A DNA stretch of 64,000 bases from Candidatus Saccharimonadales bacterium (GTDB lineage Bacteria; Patescibacteriota; Saccharimonadia; Saccharimonadales; JACQNP01), in the NCBI GenBank assembly GCA_038257245.1, contig JBBSJL010000002.1, positions 5,588 to 69,587 of the forward strand, written 5' to 3'. The position numbers were made by a program, and so were the translations under genes. Every line of letters starts with the position of its first letter. The first letter of the stretch is position 1. Below, in pieces: positions 1,252 to 32,314 of this stretch. The notes beneath the pieces were generated by a model. That model searched no databases and was not told the origin of the DNA. It saw nothing but the letters and a program-made list of their open reading frames with translations.

Positions 1252-4200
1252 TATGCTGTCTCCTTTTCTTCTTCAATTGCAGATGGAACATCTTTGGTAT
1301 CGCCATCATTATCATCTATGACTGTTACATGCGCAGAAGATTCACTCAGGTCCATTACTTCAAACTCGTCCAATGCTGCGTCTTCCGTAACGTCTACGTC
1401 TGAAGCTAACGGTGCTGGTACATCTATATCTGATAAATGTTCAGATTCATCCTTAATGTTTTCAGCCAATACTTCTTCAGCATCAACTAGTTCGTCATGC
1501 GCCACAAGATCAACTTTCAAACCAAGGCCTTGTAGTTCTTTGACGAGAACGTTAAAGCTTTCAGGTACTTTTGGACCAACAATCTCTGTTTGTTTAATTA
1601 TTGATTCGTAGGCTTTTGATCGTCCGTAAACATCGTCAGACTTAATAGTTAACATTTCCTGAAGCGTATTCGCTGCACCATATGCTTCTAGTGCCCATAC
1701 TTCCATTTCGCCAAATCGTTGGCCACCATTTTGGGCTTTACCACCTAGAGGTTGTTGAGTAACCATAGTGTATGGTCCTGTCGACCTAGCATGTATCTTG
1801 TCAGCAATCATGTGATTTAGCTTAATCATATACATACTACCTACGGTTGTTAACTCATCAAACGCCTCACCTGTACGGCCATCAAATAGCTGCTGTTTAC
1901 CATCAGCTGGTAGCCCTGCTTCCTTTAGAAGTTCTTGGATTTTTTCTGATTGGACACCGTTGAATGACGGACTAGCCACTTTCATGCCCAACGCCTTTGC
2001 AGCCATACCAAGGTGTGTTTCAAACAACTGACCAATATTCATACGGCTAGGTACACCTAGAGGGTTTAGTACTATATCGACTGGCTCACCAGTCGCTGTA
2101 AACGGCATATCTTCAACTGGCAATACTCGAGCGATTACACCTTTGTTACCATGTCGTCCACCAAGTTTATCGCCAACTGATATCTTTCGCATCTGGGCTA
2201 CAAAAACTTGAATTTGCATGATTACACCAGCTTTTAGGTCGTGACCATTTTCTTTTGAGAAAATTTTAACACCAACGACTTTACCGTGTTTACCGTTTGG
2301 CATTCTCTGTGAAGTGTCACGTACTTCTTTAGCTTTTTCGCCAAAGATTGCACGCAATAGCCTCTCTTCACTACTTAGCTCTTGTTCGCCCTTAGGAGTA
2401 ATCTTACCGACTAATATATCGCCAGGATGAACTTCTGCACCAATTCGAACAACTCCTTCGTCATCTAAATGTCTTAGAGCATCTTCAGCAACGTTAGGTA
2501 TATCACGCGTAACAATCTCCGGGCCCAATTTTGTTTCTCTAACTTCGACCATGAAGTCAACAATATGTATAGATGTTAAGGTATCGTCCTCTACTAATTT
2601 TCGCGATACAATTATGGCATCTTCAAAGTTATATCCTGCCCATGGCATAAATGCCACGCTAAGATCACGTCCAAGTGCCAATTCACCGTCAGCGACTGAC
2701 ATTCCTTCGATAATCGGATCTCCAGCCTTAAGTTTGTCACCCGTGCTAACTATGACTTTTTGATTTATAGAACTTCCTTCGTTGCTACGAATAAAGTGTT
2801 GTGGTTTATAGCTCACAAGTCCTGATTTGTACTTAACAACTACTTCATCACCCGTGGCTTTTGTGACTTCACCAGCCTGCTCAGCAACAATAAGCTGACC
2901 ACTATTTTGAGCGACAACTTCTTCTAAACCCGTACCAACAATTGGCGACTGTGGGTTAATTAGCGGTACAGCTTGACGTTGTTGGTTGCTACCCATAAGT
3001 GAACGGTACACGTAGTTCTTTTCAATAAATGGGATTAAACCAGCGCTTGATCCAATAATTTGCTTCTTCGAGGCATCGACATGAGTTACATCGTCAGCGT
3101 CAACTTCTCCAGCTTTCAAGTGACTTCGGGCTGATACACGTTCTTGGATAAAGTTACCGTTTTTGTCATAGGGCTCACTAGCACTAGCAATCACTGCTGA
3201 TTCTTCAGCTGCTGCATCTAGGTATATGACATCGTCAGTTACCACAGCCTTTACTGGCCAAGTTACTTGGGACTTAATTGTGGCAAGTTTTTTTGCGGAC
3301 ACTGCAGAGATTTTATCTCCTGATTTAACAATAACTTTCCCTTTTTCGTCTTCAAGATTTACAGAAGCAATATGACCAATAGCATCTTTAGCGGTTACTG
3401 CATTAATAACCTTTTTGTATGGAGTTTCAATAAACCCGTAATCGTTGATCCTTGCATAGCTAGAAAGATTTAGTACCAAACCGATGTTGGCGCCTTCGGG
3501 TGTTTCAACAGCACAAATTCTTCCATAGTGTGTTGCGTGCGCATCTCTAACTTCAAATCCCGCGCGTTCACGGCTAAGACCACCTGGGCCCATTGAGCTT
3601 AGACGTCTTTTGTGTGCTAGCTCACTTAAAGGATTAATCTGATCCATGAATTGCGAAAGCTGTGAACTAGCAAAGAATTCTCGAACAGCGGCAACAATTG
3701 GTCGTGCGTTAATAAGTTGAGCTGGTGTTACTGTTTCAATTTCACACATACTCATTCTGTCTTTGGTATTTCGTTCCATTCGGAGTAATCCGATTCGGAA
3801 TTGACGCTGCACAAGTTCGCCAACCAACTTAACTCGCCGGTTAGCCAACGAATCAATGTCATCAGCAGGTTCCTGGGTATTATTTAATCGGATAATTTCA
3901 GCAATTATTGCGATTAGATCTTCAAGTCGCATTACGCGGTTTTCGATGGTATTCGGAAGATCGATATCAAGTCGTTTATTCAACTTGTAGCGTCCAACAC
4001 GACTAAAATCAAAGCGTTTGTAGTTATAGAACATATTCTCGATAAGACTTCGAGCGTTTTCGACTGTTGCAAGATCACCAGGTCGTAGACGTCGATAGAC
4101 CTCTATCAATGCTTCATTTGTACCTTTGCTAGGGTCTTTATCTAAAGTTGCTTGAATATAATTAAATGATCCTTGGTCTACGTGTTTGAAGTGGTCCCTC

Positions 4201-4844
4201 ATTTGAGCCTCGCTGACACCAAGTGCTCTTAAGAGTGTTGTTACAGCTATTTTTCGTTTGCGGTCAATCTTTACGAATAACGCGCCGTTAGCAGCTGTTT
4301 CAAACTCTAACCACGCACCGCGTCCAGGAATAACTTTAGCTCCATAAATGCTCTTTGTACCCTGAAGGTCAGATGTAAAGAAAACACCAGCAGATCGTAT
4401 CAGCTGAGACACAACCACACGCTCAGCGCCGTTAATTACAAACGTCCCACGGTTAGTCATCCAGGGATAGTCACCAAGGTAAATTTCTTGGTCTTTAACT
4501 TCGCCAGTTACTTTATTTGTTAGCTCAACAACCGCCTTTAATGGCGCGTCGTAGCTTACATTGTTTTCTCGAGCTTCGTCTTCTGTTATTTTTGGTGCTT
4601 CAAAGTGATAGTCTTTGAATTTTAATGATAATTTTGTTGATGTGTAGTCATCTATCGGACTAATTTCAGCCAATAATTCCCCAAGACCTTCTTCGACAAA
4701 CCATTGAAATGACCTGTTTTGATGATCCACCAAATTTGGCATGTCAATAATTTCATCGTTGTCGGTGAAAAATTGCCTTTTTGATTGTTTTTTTAAAGTA
4801 CTTGCATTTGGACTGCTTTTTGCCATATAAAGCTTAACTCCCAC
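1251..4844 (-). CDS. rpoB: DNA-directed RNA polymerase subunit beta
   Basis: 1197-aa ORF with beta-subunit motifs ([46 protein letters not shown]). The track start is GTG 4844. ATG 4826 (MAKSS...) preceded by GGGAG is the more likely start. Acidic C-terminal tail. Confidence 0.97.
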
Positions 4845-5000: not shown

Positions 5001-5600
5001 TTAGGAATTGACTATAACTTTGTCCACAATGCCGTATTTCTTGGCTTCGTCTGCTGTCATCCAATAGTCACGTTCCATGTCTTCTTGAATTTTCTTAACA
5101 GTTTGACCGGTGTTTTTAGCCATAATCTCATTTAACTGTCGTTTGATTCTAAGTGACTCTTTCAAGTCAATCTCCATATCGGTAACTTTTCCTCTAGTAC
5201 CTGAAGACGGCTGGTGCACCATAACTGTAGAGTTCGGCAGTATAAATCTCTTTCCTTTTTTACCACTACTTAGCAGAAATGCTGCTGCAGAAGCCTGTAC
5301 ACCTATTCCAACTGTTTGAATATCGCTCTTAACAAATTGAATCGTGTCGTAAATAGCAAGCGCATCATAAACTGACCCACCAGGGCTATTTATATATAAA
5401 GAAATGTCTTTTTTGTTATCCTCATTATCCAAGAACAGTAGTTGAGCAACTATCAAATTTGCAGTGTGTTCATTTACATCCGATCCTAAGAATATAATGC
5501 GGTCTTTGAGCAGCCTGGAGTAGATATCAAATGCACGTTCAACACGTCCGTCGGTTTCTATTACTGTTGGTATCAATACAGAGTTAATTGGTTTGTTCAT
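5001..5600 (-). CDS. clpP: ATP-dependent Clp protease proteolytic subunit
   Basis: 199-aa ORF with typical ClpP blocks ([29 protein letters not shown]). Sits in the canonical tig-clpP position. Confidence 0.95.
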
Positions 5601-5607
5601 ACAGCCC

Positions 5608-5635
5608 AGTATATCAATTTATTAGCACTCGTCAA
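5608..5635 (-). promoter_or_regulatory. clpP promoter (TTGACG-16-TGaTATACT), 7 nt before the ATG
   Basis: Minus strand reads TTGACG (5635..5630), a 16-nt spacer, then TGa-TATACT (5616..5608), then gggctgt and ATG at 5600. No Shine-Dalgarno is visible. The promoter is embedded in the CIRCE palindrome. Confidence 0.5.
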
Positions 5636-5648
5636 GTAAGAGTGCTAA
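5622..5648. promoter_or_regulatory. CIRCE inverted repeat (HrcA operator), perfect consensus
   Basis: Sequence is TTAGCACTC-gtcaagtaa-GAGTGCTAA. It matches the CIRCE consensus TTAGCACTC-N9-GAGTGCTAA at all 18 arm positions. Confidence 0.8.
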
Positions 5649-5662
5649 TAATATCTTTCTCG

Positions 5663-6946
5663 CTATTTCGCTGAGAAGCTAACTAATAGAGCCAAGGTTT
5701 TTTCGGTTACCAACCTCGAGGCAATATCATTTTTGCTTTCTGGCTTATCTAGCTCGGCCTGCATGGCCACATCTTTGTATTGTGTCTTGAGTTGCACAAT
5801 TCTATTATCGACCTCTTCCATAGTCAGATCGATTTTTTCAATTTCAGAAATTTCAGAGAGCACTAAACTTGCTTTAACGCGCTCCTCGGCCTGAGTGGCA
5901 ATATCGCCTCTTAGGAATTCTTCTTCAGTTAAGCTTTCACCTTCCAGGTATTCTGGGAATGTCTGGCCACGATACGTTAAGTTCTTCTTAAATTCGTCCA
6001 CCATTCGCTTTATTTGGTCTTCTATGAGAATTTTTGGAATAGCTACTTTAGATTTTTGCGTAATTTTTCTTACGAGTTCTGATTCGTAGTCACGTTGAGT
6101 TTGTTGATCACGCTCAATCTTCAGCTGACGTTTAATATCATCCTTCAGCTGTTTGAGAGATTCGAACGGTCCGGCCTTTTTGGCAAAGTCATCATCAAGT
6201 TTTGGTTCGGTTACTTCTTGAATTTTCGTTACGTTAACTGAGAAAGTTACTTTTTTGTTGGCGAGAGTTTTAACGCCATACTCTTTCGGAAAAGTTAGTG
6301 TAAATGTTGTTTCGTCTCCCGACTTAAGCCCAATGAGATTCTTTTCGAACCCTGGGATAAACGTGTCGCTACCCAAAACTAACGGGTAATCCTTGCCGTC
6401 GGCACCTTTAATCGGCTCATTGTTGTCATTGACGCCTTTAAAATCAATCCAAACTTGATCACCATCTTTGGCTGCTCGTTTAACATCAGACTTTTCTGCC
6501 ATTCGCTTTTGTAAGGAATTAAGTACTTCTTTTACCTCGTCAGTTGAAATCACGACCTCAGATTTGGTTAGTTTGACTTTTTTATAGTCAGGTAGCAATA
6601 TTTTGCCTACAACTGGAACTTTTGCCTCAAATTCCAATGTTTCGAATGGCACAAATTTTGTAATAGAAATCTCGGGGTTATTAACTGGTCGCAACTGTTC
6701 TGAGCGTATAGCTTGAGGATATATTTGATTGATTGCTTCCTCTAGGAACTCTGATTGTAGCGCCGCTTGGTCTATTTGTTTTTCTACTAATGCCTGCGGG
6801 GCTTTGCCTTCACGAAAGCCAGTAACTTTAACATTTTTTGATAGCTTTTTAATTACTGTGTCTTTGATTAGCTCTAATTCCTTAGTGTCGGAGACAACCG
6901 TAATTACAGCATCTGTTTCTTGTGAGATAGTGTGTTTAACTTGCAT
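5663..6946 (-). CDS. tig: Trigger factor
   Basis: ORF 5663..6976. It shows trigger-factor architecture: N-terminal ribosome-binding motif (GFREGKAP), an FKBP-like middle domain and a helical C-terminus. The track start is TTG 6976. ATG 6946 (MQVKHT...) fits the usual N-terminus. Confidence 0.92.
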   Translation of the reverse strand: MQVKHTISQETDAVITVVSDTKELELIKDTVIKKLSKNVKVTGFREGKAPQALVEKQIDQAALQSEFLEEAINQIYPQAIRSEQLRPVNNPEISITKFVPFETLEFEAKVPVVGKILLPDYKKVKLTKSEVVISTDEVKEVLNSLQKRMAEKSDVKRAAKDGDQVWIDFKGVNDNNEPIKGADGKDYPLVLGSDTFIPGFEKNLIGLKSGDETTFTLTFPKEYGVKTLANKKVTFSVNVTKIQEVTEPKLDDDFAKKAGPFESLKQLKDDIKRQLKIERDQQTQRDYESELVRKITQKSKVAIPKILIEDQIKRMVDEFKKNLTYRGQTFPEYLEGESLTEEEFLRGDIATQAEERVKASLVLSEISEIEKIDLTMEEVDNRIVQLKTQYKDVAMQAELDKPESKNDIASRLVTEKTLALLVSFSAK

Positions 6947-6954
6947 AGATAACC

Positions 6955-6963
6955 ACTCTAACA
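6955..6963 (-). promoter_or_regulatory. Extended -10 (TGtTAGAGT), 8 nt upstream of the tig ATG
   Basis: Minus strand reads TGt-TAGAGT-ggttatct-ATG. This is ambiguous, because GAGTGG could instead serve as a weak SD. Confidence 0.3.
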
Positions 6964-6993
6964 GATAAGGCAACAATTTACTAGGCTACATAA

Positions 6994-7446: not shown

Positions 7447-8724
7447 TTATTTACTTAGGGCCTTGATTATTTGCTGAACACTCAATACCTGTGAGGTGCC
7501 TGTCGTTAAATCTTTTAGTCCGTATTTCTTTTGCTCGAGTTCTGAATCACCAATAAAGATCACATATTTTAAGCCTTGTTTATCTGCGTTTTTTATCTGT
7601 TTATCTATCTTTCTGCCAGTTGAATCGACTGAAACATTAACGCCAGAGTCACGTAGTTCTGAAACCACTTCTTGTGCTCTTATGTAATTATCACCAATCA
7701 CACAAACAGCCACATCTGTTTCTGGCGCTATATCTGGCAATAATTTGTTAGTTTCAAGAAAATTTTGTAAAGTAACATCCCCCATGCCGAAGCCAACTGT
7801 TGGGATTGGTTCAACACCGAATAGGCCAACCAAACCGTCGAAGCGTCCGCCTCCAAACATTGACCTGTTATTAGTAGGGCTTGTATCAAAGACCTCGAAA
7901 ACTATATCTGTGTAGTAATCGAAACCCCGCATAAGCGATATGTCAAACACTGCATTATCAATTCCAATTTTTTGCAGTGAATCTAATACATTAACTAGCT
8001 CTTTGACCGAGCTAAGCTCTTTTAGTTCTTCCGGTAACTCGGTAATGTCACTTATTTGCAACAGCTTCGTGATCTGCGGAGCATTAGTGCCAACTAAATC
8101 TTTTAGTTGTTGCTTAAATTTGTCTGCAGGCAATTTATTCATTCGATCAATTAGCTTAACCAGGTCGCGTACGACTCGTTTATCAAGCTTAAAGTAACCA
8201 GAGAGCACGCTGTCGACTAATTTTCGACTGTTTAGCCTGATCTGATACGTGTCGGTCACAGCACCATACTCTTTCAGTATGCTGTCAGCAATTTGGATCA
8301 TTTCAAGCTCTGCCGAGACATTATCAATACCAAATACATCGACATTGAGTTGCCAGTGTTCACGCAACCGACCACGTTGTGGCCGCTCATATCTCCATAA
8401 GTTTGGTATAGAGTACCAGCGGGCTGGGTAGGCCAGCTCTTGGCGCTTGCCAGCCACCATTCTGGATACGGTTGGCGTCATTTCGGGCCTAATAACAACT
8501 TGACGACCACCCCTGTCTTCGAACTGATAGGTCTGTTCGTTTACGATCTCTTCGCCTGATTTAGCCGTATAAAGATCTAGCGGCTCAAGGATTGGGGCAT
8601 CGTACTCTTGGTAACCGTATTTTTCTACTACGCGCCGAAGAACAGCAAACATATATTTCTGAATTCGTTTATCCTCAGGATAAAAATCCCGAGCCCCTTT
8701 GTATGGTTGTGTTGAAAGACTCAT
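7447..8724 (-). CDS. hisS: Histidine--tRNA ligase (full length, with anticodon-binding domain)
   Basis: Class II HisRS motifs are present: motif 2 WRYERPQRGRLREHWQ and motif 3 GGGRFDGL. A C-terminal anticodon-binding-type domain is present (VAVCVIGD...KYVIFIGDSE). GAGG SD lies upstream. Confidence 0.92.
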   Translation of the reverse strand: MSLSTQPYKGARDFYPEDKRIQKYMFAVLRRVVEKYGYQEYDAPILEPLDLYTAKSGEEIVNEQTYQFEDRGGRQVVIRPEMTPTVSRMVAGKRQELAYPARWYSIPNLWRYERPQRGRLREHWQLNVDVFGIDNVSAELEMIQIADSILKEYGAVTDTYQIRLNSRKLVDSVLSGYFKLDKRVVRDLVKLIDRMNKLPADKFKQQLKDLVGTNAPQITKLLQISDITELPEELKELSSVKELVNVLDSLQKIGIDNAVFDISLMRGFDYYTDIVFEVFDTSPTNNRSMFGGGRFDGLVGLFGVEPIPTVGFGMGDVTLQNFLETNKLLPDIAPETDVAVCVIGDNYIRAQEVVSELRDSGVNVSVDSTGRKIDKQIKNADKQGLKYVIFIGDSELEQKKYGLKDLTTGTSQVLSVQQIIKALSK

Positions 8725-8736
8725 AATTTACCTCAA

Positions 8737-10029
8737 TTATACCTTATTTTTTCTTAATCGAATTCGTACTGCTTCGGCGTGTGCCCGCAAACCTTCAGCC
8801 TCTGCTATTGCTGTAATAGTAGGAGCTAATGATTTCAAACCTTTGTATGACAATGACTGGAATGTAACCTTTTTGACAAAGCTATCCAGCGAAACACCAC
8901 CATAACTGCGCGCCCAACCACCCGTAGGAAGTGTGTGATTAGTACCTGAAGCGTAGTCACCTGCACTTTCTGGTGAGTAGTTGCCTAAAAATACTGACCC
9001 AGCATTTGAAATCTCGCTGACCACTTTTTCTGCATCTTTTATGTTTAAAATAAGGTGTTCGGGTGCATACGTGTTTGCAAATTTTATCGCCTCATCGATT
9101 GATCCAAGTTTAACAATATACGAATTCTCAAGGGCAGCTCGTACAATATCCTTCCTGGGCAAGCCTTGAGACTGTAATTTTAATAGTTTCTTCACGGCCG
9201 CGATTAACACATCCTCTGTTGATACAAGGACTGCCTGACTGTCAGGGCCATGTTCTGCCTGGCTTAATATATCTGCTGCAACAAAAGCTGGATTTGCACT
9301 ATTATCTGCGATGACCATCACCTCAGAAGGACCTGCTGGCATATCAATTGCGACACCGTACTCACCCGCAAACTGCTTGGCCGTAGTTACAAACTGGTTG
9401 CCTGGACCAAAGATTTTATCGACCTTTGGCACTGATTCAGTCCCTAACGATAGGGCAGCGATCGCTTGAATGCCGCCGACGTTAACAACGGTAGTGGCTC
9501 CCACCAACAATGCAGCATAACAGATTGCCGGTGCAAGCTTTTCGCCTACACTAGGAGGGGTACACAATACAATTTCTTTGCAACCTGCAAGCTTAGCAGG
9601 AATGCCTAGCATCAGTACCGTTGAAACTAATGGTGCGCTGCCTCCGGGGACATACAGACCCACTCGTTCTACTGGCCTAGACTCCCTCCAGCAAACTACT
9701 CCAGGCATTGTACTGACAGTTTCTTGCAGTATGTCCGTTTTTTGAGCTAAGTGGAATTTCTTGATATTCTCTGCTGCCAGGTTAATGGCTATTCGTAAAG
9801 CCATCGGGGTTTTGTCGGCCCACTTTTTAAGATCTGCGTCTGCCGACACAATACTACTAAGGTCAACTCCATCAAACTTTTTTGTATAGGTTCGCAAACT
9901 CTCATCTCTACGCTTATAAACATCGGCAAATATTTGTCGACATAGCTCTTTAGTTATTGGAACATCGAACGCTGTGCGTTCACAAATTTTCGGCCACAAG
10001 TCTGGTTTAGGATAACTATATGTTTTCAT
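8737..10029 (-). CDS. hisD: Histidinol dehydrogenase
   Basis: 430 aa with HisD blocks (QAEHGPDSQ, GNYSPESAGDYASGTNHTLPT). A strong SD (AGGAGGGGAG) lies inside the hisG 3' end. Confidence 0.92.
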   Translation of the reverse strand: MKTYSYPKPDLWPKICERTAFDVPITKELCRQIFADVYKRRDESLRTYTKKFDGVDLSSIVSADADLKKWADKTPMALRIAINLAAENIKKFHLAQKTDILQETVSTMPGVVCWRESRPVERVGLYVPGGSAPLVSTVLMLGIPAKLAGCKEIVLCTPPSVGEKLAPAICYAALLVGATTVVNVGGIQAIAALSLGTESVPKVDKIFGPGNQFVTTAKQFAGEYGVAIDMPAGPSEVMVIADNSANPAFVAADILSQAEHGPDSQAVLVSTEDVLIAAVKKLLKLQSQGLPRKDIVRAALENSYIVKLGSIDEAIKFANTYAPEHLILNIKDAEKVVSEISNAGSVFLGNYSPESAGDYASGTNHTLPTGGWARSYGGVSLDSFVKKVTFQSLSYKGLKSLAPTITAIAEAEGLRAHAEAVRIRLRKNKV

Positions 10030-19500: not shown

Positions 19501-19584
19501 GATGGGGGCGGAACTGTAACAGAAAGAACAGTTACAGTTACAGACTCAAACAGCGACTCTAGTAGTATTATATTTACTTTCTAG
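16534..19584 (+). CDS. Class A penicillin-binding protein (transglycosylase/transpeptidase) with N- and C-terminal extensions
   Basis: GT51 motifs (EDKDFFKHGGFD, RQGGSTITQQL) and transpeptidase motifs (SSFKP, SRN, KTGTT). About 90 aa of basic cytoplasmic tail precede the single TM helix. About 270 aa of beta-rich extension follow the transpeptidase domain. Confidence 0.92.
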   Translation: MGKKPKGRKTTNKSRQLGRKKKNTFTTKSGQTIKLNRSISDKLKARKDSRAVKKAKRLSGMPKSRVKRFFFRLQPKRLAKYWFSREGAIMALKILGISIIVGFLLLVGLFAYYRKDLPNLKDISGNNLGGSNRYYDRSGEVLLWEDFDAVKRIPVKDDAISQYIKDATVAVEDKDFFKHGGFDVRGITRAAIKNVTGSGDSRQGGSTITQQLVRLTQKGVGSEQTYQRKLKEIILSIELERSYNKGEILSGYLNTAPYGNVQYGVESSTRDYFQKSAKDLTLDEAAFLAAIPKSPSILSPYGPRYNPEALVGRQHYILDLMQEQGMITEEQRDGAKKVDTLVKVKEVKPKYQGIKAPYFVLLAKQQLEEKYSTETVLRGGWKITTTLDLKLQELAERKVSEGYGNVTRAGFDNVGFVAEDVTNGQMVAVVGGIDFFNKEFGENNYAHWRLPPGSSFKPYDYLSVLENTDNFGAGSVLYDTQGQLEGYPCTNKAQPKQGGNCLWDYDFRFPGPLTLRYALGGSRNVPAVKSMLIAGIDKTIETAEKLGLPSGYSCYAPDVEDVQFAKESEEAQCYSSSAIGDGAYLMLDEHVHAYSTISRNGNKLPQTYILKIEDGGNKIVDEWKPDKGEQVVRPDSAYIVADMMADPNASYFTNKPHRNNGWEYSLKTGTTNDSKDGWLMGFSTKYSAGVWVGHHTRRVATRSFMETMTQPIWQGWMNEAHDGIEPVKRERPSGVQELPAYVVRQHVGLGSREPSPATDLYPSWYQQNKKKAGEKKTIDIISNKLATDCTPSRARKETIENASSFSSDPYVNGGSGANANTSEKDDIHKCDDAKPAITITSTSSPCTTSCTIYAIVAQGTHSLTGGGEHGGGVINVVIDGQVVQSFPANQTTLTFSFNGTGKKSVKVELVDSVLYESSDTTTINFSKAVTPPPSSSPPTLDNSGGAITSPHPVLITWSDGTGPFTVTVDGSAYPGCDGISVRECNIILNDGGGTVTERTVTVTDSNSDSSSIIFTF

Positions 19585-20266
19585 TCTGAGCCGTGGTTGC
19601 GAAGATCATTTTGCCTGCGACTGATTGATGAATTTTTGTTACCTCAGCATCAACCAACTTACCTTTGTGCTTTGCAGCTCCGTCAATTACTACCATTGTG
19701 CCATCTTCAAGATAACCTACTCCTTGTTTTGGGTTGCTGCCCTTTTGCATAATCATGACTTTGATCTGCTCCCCTGGCAAAGCAACAGGCCGTAATTGTT
19801 GAGCAAGTTCATTCACGTTTAGCACCCTCACACCTTCGATTTCTGCAAGTTTTGCAAGATTGAAGTCCGTTGTGTAAAGCTCTGCACCAATATTTTTTGT
19901 CAGTTTTAAAAGTTTGTCATCGGTTTTAACTTCATCTTTAACGATGTCTCTCTCGATGGTTACGTTAGAATACTTATTGGATTGAAGTTCCTTGACCACA
20001 TCCAGCCCAAACCTAGCCCGTTCGCGCTTATGCGAATCTTTGCCATCTGCCAATAGCTGGAGTTCGCTTAGTATAATTGCCGGTACAATCAAGTTTTCTG
20101 GTACAAACCCAGATCTAGCCAGTTCAACAATCCTGCCATCAATAAGTGCACAAGAATCTAAGACTACTCGACGACTTTTCTTTTGCTTAGTTTTAGGCGG
20201 TTTGTAATTGTAGACAAGGATGGCGAGTATAGCTACTAGAAGTGCTGTCTGAATATAACTTATCAT
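19574..20266 (-). CDS. PIN/TRAM domain membrane-anchored protein (YacL-like)
   Basis: 230 aa with an N-terminal TM helix, a PIN-like core (LDSCALIDGRI) and a C-terminal TRAM-like beta domain. It sits downstream of radA as in Bacillus. ATGA overlap with the radA stop. Confidence 0.8.
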   Translation of the reverse strand: MISYIQTALLVAILAILVYNYKPPKTKQKKSRRVVLDSCALIDGRIVELARSGFVPENLIVPAIILSELQLLADGKDSHKRERARFGLDVVKELQSNKYSNVTIERDIVKDEVKTDDKLLKLTKNIGAELYTTDFNLAKLAEIEGVRVLNVNELAQQLRPVALPGEQIKVMIMQKGSNPKQGVGYLEDGTMVVIDGAAKHKGKLVDAEVTKIHQSVAGKMIFATTAQTRK

Positions 20267-21609
20267 CAGTTTTTTTCGAGCAGAGTATTAAGGGCTGTTT
20301 TAATATCAGTAATGCCGGCATAATTATTCAGCTTTTTGCTTACTTTGGGACCAACACCGCCTTCGAAACCTAGCTTTGTGGCTTCCTCTACTCGCTTCTC
20401 GATATACGGTACGTGGCGGATTTCACCTGACAATCCAACCTCTCCAAAGACAACGACATTCTTTTTTAGTAGTAGCCCTTTTGTAGCTGAAGCTAGTGCC
20501 ATACACACGGCCAGATCACTTGCAGGTTCAGTTAATTTAATCCCACCTACAATATTTACATATATATCTTGATCGGATAAATCAAGCTTTGTACGGCGCT
20601 CAAGCATCGCGACGAGTAAGTTAAGGCGGTTAATGTCCATCCCACTCGCAGCGCGTTTTGGATAGCCGTAACTAGTACGATTAACCAAGGCTTGGACTTC
20701 AACCAGCAATGGTCTGGTACCTTCCAATGTAGCCAATACAATCGACCCATCAGTAACTTGGCGCTCAGCTAACAATGCAGCCGATGGATTGCTGACAACC
20801 GTCATACCCCTCTCTGTCATCTCATATATTGCTGTTTCTGAAGTAGAACCGTATCTATTCTTTATTGTCCGTAATATTTTAAACCCGCCATAACGATCTC
20901 CTTCCAATTGAAGTACTACGTCGACAACGTGTTCTAGAACCTTTGGCCCTGCTATAGAGCCTTCTTTTGTGACATGACCAACCAGCAACACGGCTGTGTC
21001 AGATTGTTTCGCAGCAGCAGTTAAAAGTTGCGTGCTATTTGTAATCTGACTGACAGTGCCGGCAGCAGAACTAATAGCTTGGCAAGTCATAGTCTGAATA
21101 GAATCAACAATTACGAGTTGATACTTACCGCTTGCAATACTTGCCGCCACGTCGTCGCTACTACTACTAGTCGCAAGTTGCAATGTTGAGCTATCAACCC
21201 CCAACCTGGTAGCTCTCAAACCAATTTGATGCGAAGACTCTTCTCCACTTACATATAAAACTGTTTGATTTTTAGCGATGTCGTTCGCAATCTGCAGCAG
21301 TATTGTGCTTTTACCTATTCCAGGCTGACCTGCCATTAGATTAACACTTCCCCTAACAATTCCGCCGCCCAGCAAAGTATCGAATTCTTGCATAGAACTA
21401 GTCAATCGCTTGTGGTCGTTGGTCAATGATTTTTTTACACTACTTGTTGTGAGTGACTGGCCTTTGGTGATCATTTGCCCAACTGAGGACTGAATAATCT
21501 CTTCTGACATAGTATTCCACTCACCGCACCCATAACACTTACCACTCCAAGTTTGTGAAGTTAGACCACAGCTAGAACAAGTAAACTGCACCACATCTTT
21601 TTTTGCCAT
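20266..21609 (-). CDS. radA: DNA repair protein RadA/Sms
   Basis: Contains a zinc ribbon (CSSCG...CYGCGEWNT), Walker A (GQPGIGKST), KNRYG and a Lon-like C-terminal domain. Confidence 0.95.
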   Translation of the reverse strand: MAKKDVVQFTCSSCGLTSQTWSGKCYGCGEWNTMSEEIIQSSVGQMITKGQSLTTSSVKKSLTNDHKRLTSSMQEFDTLLGGGIVRGSVNLMAGQPGIGKSTILLQIANDIAKNQTVLYVSGEESSHQIGLRATRLGVDSSTLQLATSSSSDDVAASIASGKYQLVIVDSIQTMTCQAISSAAGTVSQITNSTQLLTAAAKQSDTAVLLVGHVTKEGSIAGPKVLEHVVDVVLQLEGDRYGGFKILRTIKNRYGSTSETAIYEMTERGMTVVSNPSAALLAERQVTDGSIVLATLEGTRPLLVEVQALVNRTSYGYPKRAASGMDINRLNLLVAMLERRTKLDLSDQDIYVNIVGGIKLTEPASDLAVCMALASATKGLLLKKNVVVFGEVGLSGEIRHVPYIEKRVEEATKLGFEGGVGPKVSKKLNNYAGITDIKTALNTLLEKN

Positions 21610-21626
21610 AATATTAGTGTACCAAA

Positions 21627-22598
21627 CTACTCCGTATTTATTGTCTTTGGTCGACTATCAATAGCATTTATTAGTTCATTTTCTTGTGTGACGATTTTAT
21701 TATACTCAGCTAGAATATTATTGTATTGATCGATCATAGACGATACGACCTGGACCTCTGCGTTATATGCGTTCACCCGATTGTTGTAACTAACAACTTG
21801 GATATTAAATGAGGTCGGATTAGCATTATGCCTACGGCTCTCCAGATCTTTAAACTCAACAGACAATGCCAAAGCTTCAGTTTCTAGCTGTTTGTTCTTG
21901 CTATCAATCTGGATCTTCAGTTTCTCAAGTTGTTGCTTATTTTGCTCGGCTTTGGATTCTAGCTCACTGAATGCTTTTTCATACTGCTGAGAAAGTTTTA
22001 CAACTATTGACCTGTCTTTAAAATATCGGCTGTAATATTCTTCGAGTTCAGGTGATATATCCGCAACTTCTGTGGCTATGATTGAATGTAACTCGTTAGG
22101 AACCACCGAAGGGTCCTTATCATGATATGATTTGACCGTAGCGATAATTCGATCGTCTTTTACATTGCGTAACTCTTGTGCCGTAAGTTTATCAATTCTT
22201 TCTCTATCCTTACTGGATAGTCGTTCGTATGCAGCGTGAAGCATTTCGTGTGCCGCTGTTACTTCCTCTACGCCATTTAGCCGTTCATCCTTGACGTCAT
22301 ATAGATATATACCCGCAGGTGATATAAAACATCCTAAAACTATACTTTGTTCGCTATCACTGCAACTTTGATTAAACTCAGCCCTACCCTGCAAGGTCGG
22401 CCAGTTAACATAGAACAATTGTTTGCCGTCGTCAGTCATTGTAGTGGCCGTAGCTAGCTGAGCTATTTCGGACGAAGGGATATAATCTCTGAGTCTAATC
22501 CAATCAAAAATCGTTTGTTTTTGCCAGAATCCAAATGCAATAACAATTAGTAAACTGAATAATACCGTGATTGATGCTGTCTGTTTTTTAGGTTTCAC
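21627..22598 (-). CDS. Membrane-anchored protein with HExxH motif and C-terminal coiled coil (putative zinc metallopeptidase-like)
   Basis: 323 aa with an N-terminal TM helix, AAHEMLHAAY (HExxH), then a long heptad-like K/E/Q-rich segment. I do not recognise the family. Confidence 0.4.
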   Translation of the reverse strand: MKPKKQTASITVLFSLLIVIAFGFWQKQTIFDWIRLRDYIPSSEIAQLATATTMTDDGKQLFYVNWPTLQGRAEFNQSCSDSEQSIVLGCFISPAGIYLYDVKDERLNGVEEVTAAHEMLHAAYERLSSKDRERIDKLTAQELRNVKDDRIIATVKSYHDKDPSVVPNELHSIIATEVADISPELEEYYSRYFKDRSIVVKLSQQYEKAFSELESKAEQNKQQLEKLKIQIDSKNKQLETEALALSVEFKDLESRRHNANPTSFNIQVVSYNNRVNAYNAEVQVVSSMIDQYNNILAEYNKIVTQENELINAIDSRPKTINTE

Positions 22599-22616: not shown

Positions 22617-25088
22617 CTACTCAGCTGCAAGGTCGTAAACTAGTTCCTTGTTTCGTACGCCAATCTTTAGAATAGTACCTTTTTGGTAATTATCTTCTAG
22701 AATTTTCAGTGATATATGGTCCTCGATCGTATCTTGTATTAGTCGACGAAGTGGGCGTGCGCCATTAAGTGGGTCGTAGCCATGCTCTAGCAAGTACTGT
22801 TTGGCCGGTGAAGTTACTTTTATACCTATGCCGTGTTTCACTAGTCTCGTTTTCAGTTCGTCAATTTGTAAATCCATAATCTGCATTACATTCTTTTTGG
22901 TCAATGCACGAAATACCACTGTCTTATCAAGACGATTAAGCAGCTCGGGTCTTAGCATCTTTTTTAGTTCTTCTTGTACTTTTTCCTGATTGCTAGCATG
23001 CACAGAATCTAGGTTACTTTCATCGCGTTTAGTAGCCACGTGGAACCCCAGTTGCGCTTCTTTTTGTAACTTTTCAGCTCCGAGATTACTGGTCATTATT
23101 ATAATTGTGTTGGTAAAATCAATTTTTCGGCCTTTTGCATCTGTGAGTACGCCATCCTCTAGTATCTGTAATAACATGTTGAATATTTCTGGGTGAGCCT
23201 TTTCTATTTCGTCAAACAGAACAAGGCTGTATGGCTGGCGCCTGATCTTATCAGTTAACTGACCGCCCTCGTCGTAACCAACGTAACCGGCTGGGGCACC
23301 GACTAATCTAGATGCGGTATGTCGTTCGCTAAATTCACTCATATCAATTTTTACTAACGAATCCTCGTTACCGAAAAATTCTCTAGATAAGACACGAGCT
23401 AATTCGGTCTTGCCAACTCCTGTTGGGCCCAAAAATATAAATGAGCCTATTGGACGCTTGCTGCTACCCACTCCTGCGCGGCTTCGACGGATAGCCTTTG
23501 AAACAGCGGATACCGCTTCATCCTGACCAATAACATGTTTGCTGATAATTTTCTCTAGATTTAGTAGATATTTAGCTTCTGATTTGATGACCTTGGTTAC
23601 TGGGACACCTGTGATCCTTGCAACAACTTCTGCAACATCATCATTGGTCATTATTAGGCTTCTAGCTGTTTTACCATTTTTTTCTAACTCGGCTAGACGT
23701 TTATTTATTTGGCTTGCTCGTTGCTTGTATTCAGCAGCCTTTTCATAGTCTTCGTTGTCAACCGCATCTTCTATGCGATTATTGACTAGTTTTAGTTCTT
23801 TCTGGAGTTTACGGATCTCTGGTGGAGTTTTTCCTTTATCAATCCTTATATGTGCGGCAGTTTCGTCAAGAAGATCAATTGCCTTGTCAGGCATAAACCT
23901 ATCGTTAATATACCTTTTGGAAAGAGTGACGGTATCTTCTAGAACTTCGTCACTAATAGTCACTCCATGAAATTCTTCGTAATGTTTTCGTAGGCCTTTC
24001 AAAATTGCCAGTGTCTCCGGCAGGGTTGCTTCAGGTACTTGTATAGGCTGAAAACGTCTTTCGAGTGCTGCGTCTTTCTCGATGTGTTTCGTGTATTCTG
24101 TAGTTGTAGTAGCCCCTATGAGCTGGATCTTACCTCTAGCCAGGGCAGGTTTAAGGATATTGCCTGCATCCATCGCTCCTTCTGCAGCACCTGCACCCAC
24201 AATTAAATGTAATTCATCTATAAATACAATACATTTCTTATCATTTTCGAGTTCGGACATTACCTTTTTAAGGCGTTCTTCGAATTCACCGCGATACTTA
24301 GTGCCAGCAATCATCCCAGCAAGATCAAGCATAATTATTCGTTTATCTAACAAACTGTCAGGGACATCTTCGGTAATAATTCTTTGGGCCAATCCCTCGA
24401 CAATTGCTGTCTTTCCAACCCCAGGTTCACCAATAAGAACTGGGTTGTTTTTAGTACGCCTATTCAAAATAGTTACGACTCGTCTTATTTGAGCTTCTCG
24501 GCCAACTACGGGATCAAGTTTTTTAGCTCGAGCCTCAGCGGTTAAGTCTGTGCCAAAAAAGTCTAGAGCAGTTTTCCGTTGTTTTTTTGTTCGTTTGTGC
24601 GATCCAGTGCTGTTGTTATTGTATTGTTGCCTATTTAGGAACTGTTCCAGCTCTGTGATTAAACGATCGACATTGATGTTCATATCTTTGAGTAATGTAG
24701 TTGCACGGGCATTTTTTTGTGTCAAAATACTGTACAAAATATGTTCGGTCCCACAAAATTCTTGGCTGAATTCCTGGGCAAATTCAAAAGCCATTCGAAG
24801 TGTTAGCTTAGCTGTTTCGCTTAGCCCCTTACCTCCGTAATTTATAACGAGTGTCTTCGGTGTTAGATTTAAAGCTAATCTAGCTCGATCTAGAGTAACA
24901 CCTGCTTCTTCCAGCACTTTAGAACCAATACTACTATCTTGTGCAAGGACCCCGAGCAATAAATGTTCAGTACCAATATATGCACTACCAAAGCTTCTTG
25001 CTATAGCATCCGCATGCTTGATACTTGCCTGAGCATTGTCCGTCAGGTTGTTTAAAAAATCATTAAAGTCTGGCGAGTTAGGCATCAT
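22617..25088 (-). CDS. clpC: ATP-dependent Clp protease ATP-binding subunit ClpC
   Basis: 823 aa with a double Clp_N repeat, two AAA+ modules ([16 protein letters not shown]), a UVR-like linker and sensor motifs. Confidence 0.93.
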
Positions 25089-25134
25089 ATTTACTAAACC
25101 CCTTTATCTGCGTGTTTTTGCTTCGCATACTCAC

Positions 25135-25164
25135 ATAATACACAAACTAGCACTCGCGAGTCAA
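25135..25164 (-). promoter_or_regulatory. clpC operon promoter (TTGACT-18-TATTAT)
   Basis: Minus strand reads TTGACT (25164..25159, inside the CIRCE loop), an 18-nt spacer, then TATTAT (25140..25135). A leader of about 45 nt with AAGGGG SD follows. Confidence 0.45.
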
Positions 25165-25173
25165 GAGTGCTAG
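25147..25173. promoter_or_regulatory. CIRCE inverted repeat (HrcA operator), near-consensus
   Basis: Sequence is CTAGCACTC-gcgagtcaa-GAGTGCTAG. It matches the consensus at 16 of 18 arm positions and differs only at the two outermost bases, which stay complementary to each other. Confidence 0.72.
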
Positions 25174-25196
25174 TTTTTCATATACCTAGTTTGTTT

Positions 25197-26369
25197 TTAC
25201 TTATCGGTACCGTGTTCTTCGATTGCTTCGAGCAGACTAGATTCCAGCTGTTCTTTCTTTTTAAGTTTTGGTGGCGCTACCTGTTTTGCTTCTGGTTTAG
25301 CCTCTGTTTCTTCGACCTCTTTTGGTTTTTCATCTTCAGAGACAATATCAATATCATAGCCGGTTAGTTTGCTAGCTAAACGTACATTCTGACCACTCTT
25401 ACCAATGGCAATACTTAGTTGATCGTTTGGTACTGAGACTCTAGCTTTTTTATTCTTCTCGTCTAGAGTAACTTTATCTACCTTGGTTGGACTAAGTGCA
25501 TTTACAATATATTCTTTGGTGTCTTCACTAAAAACAACAATATCAATTTTTTCTTGCTCACCAATTTCGCTCATAACCGCATTGACACGTGTTCCATGGC
25601 CGCCAACAAAAGTTCCGACTGGGTCCACGCCAGGTACACTACTGCTAACTGCTATTTTAGTACGAACACCACCTTCGCGGGAAATCCCTTTGATCTCTAC
25701 GGCGCCACTTTCCATCTCTGGGACTTCTGATCTAAATAACCATTCAACAAATACTGTACTACCACGAGAAACAACAAGTTGTGGACCACGAAAACCACGC
25801 TCCACGTCTTTTAGGAATACTTTTAGTCTCTGCCCCGGGTAATAGCGTTCTCCTTGAATCTGCTCACTCATCGGCATAATACCCTGTGCCTTGCCAAGAT
25901 CAACTCTGACTATTCGACCTTCCACCCGCGCAACAATTGCGTTAATGACTGTCCCGATTTTATCTTCGTATTCATTCATCACTATCTCGCGTTCAGCTTC
26001 ACGTAATCTTTGCAAAATTACCTGCTTAGCAGTTTGAGCGGCAACACGCCCAAATGTGTCGATCTTTTGGTGGATTTCCATCATGTCACCAATGGCTGCA
26101 TTCTTCTTCATAACTCCTGCATCTTTTAAGCTTATCTCATATTTATCGTCACCAACTAGTTCTACAACCTCTTTGGTTATATATGCATCAACTTCACCAT
26201 TATTAAGGTTCATACTCACTCTAACTTCTTGTTCACGATCACCGTAGTCCCGACGATAGGCAGCTGCTAATGCTTGTTCTACCACCTCTTGCACAACATC
26301 TTCTGGCAAGTTTTTCTCCTCGGCAATAGTTTTTAAGGCCATTGCCAACTGTTTTATATCTAGATCCAT
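25197..26369 (-). CDS. nusA: Transcription termination/antitermination factor NusA
   Basis: ORF 25197..26453. N-terminal domain, S1 and two KH domains (AIGKSGQNVRLASKLTGYDIDI), plus an acidic/lysine-rich tail. Real start is ATG 26369 (MDLDIKQ...), 7 nt after AAGGAG. Confidence 0.93.
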   Translation of the reverse strand: MDLDIKQLAMALKTIAEEKNLPEDVVQEVVEQALAAAYRRDYGDREQEVRVSMNLNNGEVDAYITKEVVELVGDDKYEISLKDAGVMKKNAAIGDMMEIHQKIDTFGRVAAQTAKQVILQRLREAEREIVMNEYEDKIGTVINAIVARVEGRIVRVDLGKAQGIMPMSEQIQGERYYPGQRLKVFLKDVERGFRGPQLVVSRGSTVFVEWLFRSEVPEMESGAVEIKGISREGGVRTKIAVSSSVPGVDPVGTFVGGHGTRVNAVMSEIGEQEKIDIVVFSEDTKEYIVNALSPTKVDKVTLDEKNKKARVSVPNDQLSIAIGKSGQNVRLASKLTGYDIDIVSEDEKPKEVEETEAKPEAKQVAPPKLKKKEQLESSLLEAIEEHGTDK

Positions 26370-26393
26370 TGTTTTTCTCCTTCTTGGTCTCTT

Positions 26394-26422
26394 AAATGAA
26401 AAGAACCGACCACTTTGGCCGG
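26394..26422 (-). terminator. Terminator-like hairpin plus U-rich tract inside the nusA 5' leader
   Basis: Minus strand reads CCGGCC-aaagt-GGTCGG, a 6-bp stem with one G-U pair. It is followed by TTCTTTTCATTT and lies between the predicted nusA promoter and the SD. Confidence 0.4.
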
Positions 26423-26437
26423 CTTGGAACACTAGTA

Positions 26438-26467
26438 ATTGTACTAAATACAAAGATGGAAAGTCAA
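26438..26467 (-). promoter_or_regulatory. nusA promoter (TTGACT-18-TACAAT)
   Basis: Minus strand reads TTGACT (26467..26462), an 18-nt spacer, then TACAAT (26443..26438). Confidence 0.45.
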
Positions 26468-29959: not shown

Positions 29960-31093
29960 ATGGACGGCGTAGAATACTTTAAACATTTTGAGACACCCGA
30001 ATCTAGATTTTCAGAACGCGATAATCCAAACCTAGTAGAAATAAGTAGCGATTTGGCATACAAACTGAGAGCTCTATATTTCGTAGGCGATGTAGCCCTA
30101 TTAGGATCACAAGAAACCCAACTAGCAAACCATGCAACACAAACAGTTTCCTCTCATAGACAACTACGAAACTTGATGGGGGCGATTGATTTAACCTATA
30201 AGCCCAACGACGATATGGCGGATCTTTCTGATAGTGGAGAACAAGACGTCGTACGTATGATTAAAAGCGAACGCGACACATTGAGTGGTAGATTTGCTGT
30301 GCATAACGACCTTTTACTTAGTCGGGTTATTTCAAAAATACATAACGCTGGTCCAACACCAAATAAAAACTCAACGCCACAAACAATAGTAAAAAACGAA
30401 TTGCGAAGCCAAAACAAAGAACTAGCTAAGCTATTATGGGGATGGCAATCAACTGTAAGGGCTAATTACGATTCCAATGACAGCGGAACATACAAAGACT
30501 TTTCGCTTGAAATAGACAGAAGTCATGGTTTTCACGTTCCAGAATGGGTATTAGAAGCTAAAGACCCGGATGGGCCTGCTCAGATATTATGTTCTATAAT
30601 CAACGAACTCGAAACATTACTTGTTCTCAATGAGTGGGTTGTTGCCAAAGGATTACCTTACCTGCCAATAATTGCACCGATACACTATGAAGCAAGCATA
30701 ACTGAGTCCGCAAAGAACCCCCATGCGGACATTTTATTATGTTGTCTGGAACCCGGTGTTAACGATGTTGTGCCAATTCAGGTGAAAAAACGGGTCGTTG
30801 AAATGACAAGAGAAAGATATATAGATGGCATGGTGTTCATCACCCCCCAAGATTTTGGTCAAACCAATGTCTCTCATCTACCTATTAGAGAAAAAGGTGT
30901 CGTGCGAACAGGCAATAGAGTTACCTATACTTATGGTGAAATACTATCGGATTTTGTCACAGCCAATTCTATGAGAAAGGGCTATAAACCGACTAAACAA
31001 CAGAAGAAGCGACAGTCAGACAGGATTGACCTAGCACTTGCAGGAATTGATAGAATAATGACCCGAGAAGGTCTATTTACTTCTCCCAGTTGA
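29960..31093 (+). CDS. Hypothetical protein with a C-terminal PD-(D/E)xK nuclease-like signature
   Basis: 377 aa. The N-terminal ~200 aa are unrecognisable. The C-terminal part carries helix INELETLLVLNEW, strand PHADILLCCL (D257) and strand VVPIQVKK (Q274-x-K276), in the order and spacing of the restriction-endonuclease fold. It lies 25 nt after the acyltransferase gene. Confidence 0.35.
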   Translation: MDGVEYFKHFETPESRFSERDNPNLVEISSDLAYKLRALYFVGDVALLGSQETQLANHATQTVSSHRQLRNLMGAIDLTYKPNDDMADLSDSGEQDVVRMIKSERDTLSGRFAVHNDLLLSRVISKIHNAGPTPNKNSTPQTIVKNELRSQNKELAKLLWGWQSTVRANYDSNDSGTYKDFSLEIDRSHGFHVPEWVLEAKDPDGPAQILCSIINELETLLVLNEWVVAKGLPYLPIIAPIHYEASITESAKNPHADILLCCLEPGVNDVVPIQVKKRVVEMTRERYIDGMVFITPQDFGQTNVSHLPIREKGVVRTGNRVTYTYGEILSDFVTANSMRKGYKPTKQQKKRQSDRIDLALAGIDRIMTREGLFTSPS

Positions 31094-32060
31094 ATTCTGA
31101 ATGCCCAAAATGTCCATAGCGTGCAGTTGTCTCATAATGGGGGGTCTTGAGCTTCAGCCAGCCTACAATGCCGTTTGGTGATAGGTCATAGCCCTCTACA
31201 TTGTGTTGTTTACCATCTACAATAACGGTTGCTTCCAGTGGCTGATTATATCCGATAGCATAAGCCAGGTAGCAGAATACCTCTTTAGCTGAATTCTTTT
31301 TTAAATAGTCTATAGCAATTTTGCGGGCTGCGTAGGCAGCAGAACGATCAACCTTGCTTGGGTCTTTGCCGCTAAAACAACCACCACCTATAGGTATACG
31401 CGGTCCGTAGTTATCAACTACAAGTTTACGTCCAGTCAGGCCAGTATCTGCGTCAAAACCACCTTGGTCCCAATCACCTGCTGGATTGACGTGGAGCTTT
31501 ACGTTTTTGCTGACAACGGCAAGTTTCTGACTACGCAGCCACTCTTGGACTTCTTTCTTTAACTCAGCCGACTTAGCATGTTGAAAGCTTGCAACCACTG
31601 ATTCGATCTGTTCACCACGAAGTGTAACCTGTGTCTTCCCATCGTGTGGCCAAATATCAAATACGTGCTGATTTAGCTGTCTTGATAATACTGTCTCAAG
31701 GGGCAATAGTTCTTCGGTCTCATTGCATGCATATCCAACCATAATACCCTGGTCGCCAGCGCCACCAGAATCAACACCTCCTGCAATCTCTGGGCTCTGT
31801 TGCACTATTCTTACCTCAACTTCAACATCTCCAGCTAAACGGTGAACGATTCGTTCCACGTCCACTTCTGCTTTACTTGTGACTTCACCAACGACAAATA
31901 CCTTGCCATGTCCTCCTACTGTTTCTACAGCTACTCTGGAATCCGCATCTTTTGTTAAATACGCATCCAAAATTGCATCTGATATTTGATCACAAATCTT
32001 ATCTGGGTGTTTAGGTGAAACACTCTCTGCTGTTTTATAGTTTGTTGCTTTTACGGACAT
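31077..32060 (-). CDS. metK: S-adenosylmethionine synthetase (compact, ~327 aa)
   Basis: MetK blocks are present: SPKHPDKICDQISDAILDA, GAGDQGIMVGYA, GLTGRKLVVDNYG and GGGCFSGKDPSKVDRSAAYAARKIA. Real start is ATG 32060 (MSVKAT), directly after the riboswitch terminator and AAGGAG. The track ORF reads 27 nt into the leader. Confidence 0.93.
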   Translation of the reverse strand: MSVKATNYKTAESVSPKHPDKICDQISDAILDAYLTKDADSRVAVETVGGHGKVFVVGEVTSKAEVDVERIVHRLAGDVEVEVRIVQQSPEIAGGVDSGGAGDQGIMVGYACNETEELLPLETVLSRQLNQHVFDIWPHDGKTQVTLRGEQIESVVASFQHAKSAELKKEVQEWLRSQKLAVVSKNVKLHVNPAGDWDQGGFDADTGLTGRKLVVDNYGPRIPIGGGCFSGKDPSKVDRSAAYAARKIAIDYLKKNSAKEVFCYLAYAIGYNQPLEATVIVDGKQHNVEGYDLSPNGIVGWLKLKTPHYETTARYGHFGHSEFNWEK

Positions 32061-32215
32061 AAAAAAACTCCTTTCTATCGAGCCCACGACTAGGTCAGAA
32101 AAGGAGTGTCATCTCATCATCTTTCCCGTAATGGGCTGAACTTAGCACCTTACTAATCGATAGTAGGTTGCCGGTGGGTCAATGGGTCAGATCCCTCTCC
32201 ACGCTCTTGATAGTG
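32061..32215 (-). promoter_or_regulatory. SAM-I (S-box) riboswitch with terminator / SD-sequestering expression platform
   Basis: Minus strand 32215..32113 reads cacTATCAAGAGcgtGGAGaGGGAtctGaCCCattGAcCCaccGGCAACCtactatcgattagtaaGGTGCTAAgttCagCccattacggGAAAGATGAtGAG, matching the S-box core. It is followed by ACTCCTTT...AAAGGAGT plus TTTTTTT (32108..32061). The 3' arm of that hairpin contains the metK SD. Confidence 0.88.
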
Positions 32216-32314
32216 ATTTAATTGTTAACCATCTAATCTTACATGTCCCTCTAAATAATGCAACTATTTTGTGCTACTTCAATGCCCTGTCGATACAGAA
32301 AAAAGCATAAACCG

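Follow-up and report, generated by a model that had tools for sequence, protein, structure and literature searches.

The 27-bp palindrome at 25147..25173 (minus strand) of the window, by which we mean the whole 64-kb stretch of DNA that was analysed, belongs to the CIRCE family by its sequence, spacing, position and conservation. It is very probably an HrcA operator, and from its location HrcA is predicted to repress the clpC operon by occluding the promoter. The host is a Saccharibacterium (TM7, Patescibacteria), and its closest relatives by protein similarity are Candidatus Saccharibacteria. Given the distribution of the motif described below, it is very likely that HrcA also controls Clp protease genes in Saccharibacteria. 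The Clp proteolytic machine of this lineage would thus be co-regulated with chaperones by HrcA, and not by CtsR.

A CIRCE element upstream of clpC

Read directly on the plus strand, positions 25147-25173 are CTAGCACTC GCGAGTCAA GAGTGCTAG, a perfect 9-bp inverted repeat. The spacer between the arms, GCGAGTCAA, is exactly 9 nt long, and the same spacing is found at all orthologous sites. Compared with the CIRCE consensus TTAGCACTC-N9-GAGTGCTAA, as quoted in PMC3842655, the element is identical at 16 of 18 positions, which make up the whole 16-position core. The sole deviation is the outermost pair, which is C...G instead of the consensus T...A and retains complementarity. The earlier note had read these positions as CIRCE in all but an outermost, still complementary pair, and that reading is borne out.

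A search of the 64 kb for the core TAGCACTC-N9-GAGTGCTA, allowing up to three mismatches, returned two sites, 5623-5647 and 25148-25172. Both are perfect, and both are directly upstream of Clp genes. Shuffled sequence is expected to yield 0.18 sites at this threshold, and by our own arithmetic about 1.5e-5 perfect 16-base matches are expected in 64 kb, figures that uphold the earlier argument that the same operator at two Clp loci is not due to chance. A generic dispersed repeat was also considered and is ruled out because the window carries only two copies. An Rfam scan of the window found a SAM riboswitch and one tRNA only, with no match at the CIRCE element. The SAM riboswitch (RF00162, 68 bits, 32114-32216, minus strand) is directly upstream of metK (31077-32087, minus strand).

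The element lies between nusA (25197-26453, minus strand) and clpC. With the end of the nusA stop codon at 25197, the gap to the repeat is 23 nt (about 25 nt had been proposed), and 58 nt separate the end of the element from the clpC ATG. On the minus strand the repeat is followed by the tail TTTGTGTATT, as the same proposal had described. A run of A before the palindrome (25174-25178) and a run of T after it (25142-25146) lengthen the stem and lend it the look of a bidirectional terminator on both strands. The plus-strand tail at 25174-25178 is TTTTTCAT, and no gene reads into the palindrome from that side.

Genes downstream of the element

Four genes on the minus strand constitute the operon clpC-(HExxH)-radA-yacL, as had been suggested from the sequence. 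The first (22617-25088) encodes an 823-amino-acid ClpC-type AAA+ unfoldase with Clp_N repeats, a middle domain that is short and UVR-like, and the LGF loop used for docking to ClpP. The middle domain and the loop indicate that this ATPase fits a ClpP-docking ClpC, and not ClpB. Database protein P0121 is 100% identical to it, and P0123 is named as a Candidatus Saccharibacteria ClpC-type ATPase. The third gene is radA (sms; 20266-21609; TIGR00416, 504 bits), and the last (19574-20266) encodes a PIN/TRAM protein resembling YacL.

The second gene (21627-22598) encodes a protein of 323 amino acids that has an N-terminal membrane helix, a long coiled coil and the motif HEMLH, which is the HExxH of the operon's description. 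No Pfam or NCBIfam model matches this protein. It is nevertheless kept between clpC and radA in six other loci, with 31-45% identity in four of them (L001, L002, L005 and L113) and as 323-aa genes in the remaining two (L206 and L207). As a member of the operon, it would be controlled by the CIRCE element.

A promoter embedded in the predicted operator

A scan for sigma-70-like promoters placed a -35 hexamer, TTGACT, at the start of the CIRCE loop (25159..25164, minus strand). The corresponding -10 hexamer, TATTAT (25135..25140, minus strand), was identified from the scan and from relatives; it follows the -35 by 18 nt, is 6 nt past the right arm and sits about 45 nt before clpC. This pair is the sole sigma-70-like match in 24800-25500, agreeing at 10 of 12 positions, although it is a match to a consensus and shuffles of the same 700 bp average 1.4 such matches. 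No other promoter-like site occurs there upstream of clpC, and CIRCE overlaps this one at its -35 box and its spacer. Everything the earlier note had stated about the sequence here (the two hexamers, their 18-nt spacing on the minus strand and the overlap with the operator) is correct.

The arrangement recurs in relatives, whose aligned sites carry TTGAnn at the start of the loop and a TAnnnT hexamer 5-6 nt past the right arm. In L002, in L206 and at the clpP site of the window, the -35 has a shifted place in the loop; the -10 is shifted by an equal amount there, and the spacer remains 16-18 nt long. The 18-nt spacer of the window's clpC promoter is one base longer than that of most relatives. 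Across the aligned clpC and clpP sites the arms are conserved, and the loops are variable except for the embedded TTGAnn. Because arms, embedded TTGAnn and -10 spacing are kept together, operator and promoter are, as judged from these alignments, one conserved unit.

Similar features appear in a larger sample. A metagenome scan with TTAGCACTCTTG-N6-GAGTGCTAA yielded 120 loci containing 116 unique CIRCE sites. TTGAC occurs at the start of the loop in 46 of these 116 sites, against 7 expected, and TAnnnT is found at a spacing of 16-18 nt in 54 of them, against 11 in a shifted control.

In L003, L005, L006, L154 and L200 (clpC), and at clpP of the window, an ATG occurs only 6-8 nt after the -10, and for this reason the corresponding clpP or clpC mRNAs are probably leaderless. 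By contrast, clpC of the window has a leader ~40 nt long, in which the Shine-Dalgarno sequence AAAGGGG is found ~10 nt upstream of the start.

These positions suggest how repression might work. The clpC-(HExxH)-radA-yacL operon has a predicted promoter of sigma-70 type, and an HrcA dimer would bind the two CIRCE half-sites within it. The -35 would then be in the 9-nt loop between the half-sites, the right half-site would fill most of the spacer, and the -10 would start 6 nt later. Because the -35 lies in the loop and the right half-site fills the spacer, bound HrcA would cover both the -35 box and the spacer, and so deny RNA polymerase access to the promoter. HrcA activity in the canonical circuit depends on GroEL/ES, and unfolded proteins titrate the chaperonin, whereupon HrcA releases its operator and the operon is expressed. 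By the same logic, clpC would be induced by heat or protein misfolding.

Conservation at clpC loci

The clpC loci used for comparison were collected by similarity of the ClpC protein, and not by the motif, so the set is not biased by the motif. CIRCE is present 17-105 nt upstream of clpC in all seven distinct Saccharibacteria loci (L001, L002, L003, L005, L006, L206 and L207/L208), whose ClpC proteins are 48-85% identical to that of the window. The site is perfect in all of these except L002, including L206, which resides on a 942-kb contig and has the 85% identical ClpC. In L002 there is a symmetric double change, TTGGCACTC-N9-GAGTGCCAA.

Among 77 clpC loci with enough upstream DNA, a CIRCE element with at most three mismatches was found in exactly five, all from Saccharibacteria. 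None was found at this threshold upstream of clpC in the 72 loci from Firmicutes, Actinobacteria, Cyanobacteria, Chloroflexi and other groups. Two Clostridia loci carry CIRCE elsewhere, before groES-groEL and htpG, as in the ordinary regulon. The earlier identification of a genuine CIRCE/HrcA operator at the clpC promoter is thus supported by its retention at clpC in every Saccharibacterium examined and its absence from clpC of other phyla, as well as by occurrences of the motif at clpP and hrcA-grpE-dnaK in relatives.

The surrounding gene order is also shared. L113 is syntenic with the window (pepN-nusA-CIRCE-clpC-hyp-radA-yacL), and the cultured Southlakia epibionticum has the orders nusA-clpC-hyp-radA and tig-...-clpP-...-rpoB (PMC10633639; gene tables). 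Two loci have additional genes. In the Nanosyncoccus locus L005, clpP (8016-8567; 63% identical to that of the window) resides within the clpC operon, in the order clpC-hyp-clpP-radA, and there a single CIRCE element would control both Clp partners. In L206, the closest relative, an extra 117-aa gene (9566-9919) that has no Pfam match is located between nusA and the CIRCE-clpC promoter.

A sister element at clpP and motifs at other stress genes

The other CIRCE element at a Clp locus of the window is a perfect copy, TTAGCACTC-TTACTTGAC-GAGTGCTAA (5622..5648, minus strand). It is found between tig (5663-6976) and clpP (5001-5600), and rpoB (1251-4844) follows; all three genes are on the minus strand. 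The predicted clpP promoter has its -35, TTGACG, at 5635-5630 and its -10, TATACT, at 5613-5608, and the clpP ATG is at 5600, 7 nt past the -10. The synteny tig-CIRCE-clpP-rpoB extends to L187 and L151, where ClpP is 77% and 73% identical, respectively, and the clpP site is conserved. This sister site would subject clpP to the same control as clpC.

In the metagenomic loci the first gene downstream of CIRCE is often one related to protein quality control: hrcA in 30 loci, dnaK in 9, groES in 8, clpC in 7, dnaJ in 6, htpG in 4, and clpP and hsp20 in 2 each. Perfect elements are found upstream of hrcA in L163 and L183. In L209-L214, which are gmk-hrcA-grpE-dnaK loci of Saccharibacteria type, hrcA is preceded by a CIRCE-like site with 2-3 mismatches, whose loop also includes the -35. 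A pilot motif scan of viral contigs gave five matches, all unrelated.

Some genes are preceded by tandem CIRCE or CIRCE-like sites, namely dnaK in L088, L127, L128, L134 and L165, and hrcA in L209-L214. In these pairs the -35 is enclosed by the first site, and the second is placed downstream of the -10, before the start codon. In four further loci (L097, L102, L162 and L192) the gene after CIRCE encodes a protein of ~100 amino acids, and three of these four loci have 62-69% G+C. The one member that was scanned, from L097, matches the zinc-ribbon family PF09723 and is an unusual candidate for the HrcA regulon.

HrcA in Saccharibacteria and the search for a CtsR system

HrcA is present in this lineage. 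In S. epibionticum, the product of SEML1_0720 matches PF01628 and PF03444, and the gene adjoins grpE-dnaK, with hrcA preceding. The 239-aa HrcA of L163 has many close homologues at NCBI that are named as Candidatus Saccharibacteria. Within the 64-kb window hrcA was not found, either by Pfam scans of ~50 ORFs or by searches of all six frames with tblastn and an HrcA profile. By analogy with its relatives, we infer that this genome also encodes the repressor. ClpC P0160 and HrcA P0098, which are both on megabase contigs, come from different samples, and the one genome with both hrcA and the clpC operon order is that of S. epibionticum, as read from its gene tables.

The Saccharibacteria repressor has about 235 amino acids, and some 100 residues from the centre of canonical HrcA are missing from it. 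The winged-helix domain can be aligned with that of Thermotoga maritima HrcA (1STZ; E = 4e-16). Given the missing central residues, the short protein may differ from the canonical one in how it dimerises and in its need for GroEL. HrcA proteins encoded downstream of CIRCE in loci L091-L197 (alignment A1) fall into a short class of 217-245 amino acids and a long class of 343-370. In this metagenomic sample, TTGAC(A/T) within the CIRCE loop together with a -10 at 16-18 nt is found at 13 of 13 complete short hrcA genes, versus none of nine long ones.

Regulation by CtsR, as in class III, was evaluated and rejected. The CtsR box, a tandem heptad RGTCAAANANRGTCAAA, does not occur at the clp promoters; its single match in the window, at 47859, has 2 mismatches, is far from the clp genes and is at chance level. 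No ctsR, mcsA or mcsB was detected among the window ORFs scanned for domains, in agreement with what the earlier note had said of the window, and the annotation tables of S. epibionticum contain no string for CtsR or McsB. The note's proposal that HrcA has replaced CtsR at this operon is therefore supported at the level of the lineage only, by the short HrcA, by the S. epibionticum tables without CtsR or McsB and by the clp promoters of the window, which have no CtsR box.

For Saccharibacteria, and probably for other Patescibacteria with a short HrcA, we lean slightly towards a broader model. Truncated HrcA would be the single proteostasis repressor, with the class I (chaperone) and class III (Clp protease) heat-shock regulons merged, the -35 enclosed in the CIRCE loop, and many targets (hrcA, clpC and clpP) apparently leaderless.

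Alternative roles for the palindrome

The hairpin might mainly, or additionally, be an intrinsic terminator of nusA, in which a 9-bp G+C-containing stem followed by UUUGUGUAUU halts nusA transcripts ahead of clpC. The earlier note had suggested such a role, and several features are suggestive of it. An 81-nt RNA stretch folds at -22.1 kcal/mol (z-score -3.8), the flanking A and U runs lengthen the stem, the repeat begins 23 nt past the nusA stop, and U occupies 5 of the first 8 bases of the tail. In L006 and L002 the element also follows shortly after the end of a nusA-like gene. However, a terminator scan of 24800-25500 was empty: the 9-nt loop exceeds the 3-8 limit of the scan, and the U-tract is interrupted (tail UUUGUGUA). 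The T-rich tail is, moreover, already accounted for as the promoter spacer and -10.

Across loci, the element tracks clpC and not nusA. In L206 the 117-aa gene intervenes, and in L207 the element is ~150 nt after nusA. The sequence that immediately precedes the element in L003 and L005 is unlike a nusA end, and tblastn with the NusA of the window found no match in either locus. An identical motif is also used at clpP and hrcA, where a terminator is not needed. We therefore regard a principal or added role as the nusA terminator as unlikely; the case for it is weak, and the role is not conserved. Read-through from nusA may to a small extent be terminated, or held up by a roadblock, at the element, but this is not the reason for the element's conservation.

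It is also conceivable that the element is no DNA operator but acts in RNA, as a stem-loop that destabilises a transcript reading through from nusA into clpC. CIRCE has been reported to affect the stability of groE mRNA in Bacillus, the hairpin described here is stable, and any transcript reading through from nusA would include it. Yet the element is upstream of the predicted clpC transcription start, and would therefore be absent from promoter-proximal clpC mRNA. Since the genes of L003, L005, L006 and the window's clpP appear to be leaderless, the element could not lie within their mRNAs at all. Its conserved co-placement with the -35 and -10 hexamers likewise favours action on DNA, and we consider an RNA-level function very improbable.

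We find it scarcely credible that the palindrome serves another regulator as its operator, or that it is a structural element or generic repeat whose likeness to CIRCE is coincidental. The window did yield no hrcA, and the HrcA of this lineage is unusually short. Yet a 16/16 core match turns up twice in 64 kb, where about 1e-5 would be expected, these two copies are too few for a dispersed repeat, the motif precedes hrcA, grpE-dnaK, groES, dnaJ and htpG (the canonical HrcA regulon) in related and metagenomic loci, and the DNA-binding domain of HrcA is well conserved in Saccharibacteria.

Comparison with known regulatory systems

To our knowledge, very little has been published on how Patescibacteria (the candidate phyla radiation) regulate their genes. 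Our full-text literature searches found no work on an HrcA regulon in Saccharibacteria or Patescibacteria, where co-mentions with HrcA were unrelated microbiome studies, and none pairing HrcA with "candidate phyla radiation". Control of Clp genes by HrcA in Saccharibacteria would extend a known system in a way that is predictable but had not been described, and would involve no new mechanism. The CIRCE-embedded promoter paired with a short HrcA may amount to a variant of it. The clpC site and its clpP sister define a concrete regulon, in which one repressor, HrcA, would coordinate chaperones and ClpCP in an ultrasmall epibiont without CtsR. Genetic tools are now available in Saccharibacteria (PMC10633639), and the predicted promoters could serve such tools as stress-responsive parts.

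A close parallel is the class I system of Bacillus subtilis and many other bacteria, in which CIRCE and HrcA regulate groESL and hrcA-grpE-dnaK-dnaJ. The two have the inverted repeat TTAGCACTC-N9-GAGTGCTAA in common, an HrcA-family repressor is likewise found in the Saccharibacteria lineage, CIRCE is upstream of hrcA (predicted autoregulation), and the targets are protein quality-control genes. The targets here, however, are the clpC operon and, through the sister site, clpP, which in Bacillus belong to class III and are controlled by CtsR. The Saccharibacteria operator encloses the -35 hexamer, whereas in the classic Bacillus layout CIRCE is located between promoter and start codon. The repressor differs as well, being about 235 amino acids long with ~100 central residues missing.

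With the ctsR-mcsA-mcsB-clpC-radA-disA operon of B. subtilis, the clpC operon of the window has in common the order clpC-radA-...-yacL and the function of a stress-inducible protease. In contrast, no ctsR, mcsA or mcsB was found here and there is no heptad CtsR operator; CIRCE stands in their place.

Streptococcus salivarius provides a case in which clpP itself is involved. Chastanet and Msadek reportedly described in 2003 that S. salivarius clpP is under both CtsR and HrcA, the latter via CIRCE at clpP. The gene is cited as a dually regulated stress gene in the title of a reference in PMC3842655. There CtsR acts on the same promoter, whereas the clp promoters of the window have no CtsR box, and no ctsR was found in the scanned window ORFs or in the annotation of the cultured relative.

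The mycoplasmas, which are also genome-reduced, offer a parallel, for there HrcA acts on a Clp ATPase as well as on an ATP-dependent protease. A tig-CIRCE-lon layout places lon of Mycoplasma pneumoniae under HrcA, which also controls clpB in this species, and the HrcA regulon of M. pneumoniae and M. genitalium takes in dnaK and groESL along with lon, clpB, pepA and pip (PMC7737663). The tig-CIRCE-lon layout resembles tig-CIRCE-clpP in the window. The genes differ, being lon and clpB in the one case and clpC and clpP in the other, as does the phylum, and the Saccharibacteria case is a prediction from sequence. Saccharibacteria would be a second case, after Mollicutes, of a reduced genome folding two stress regulons into one.
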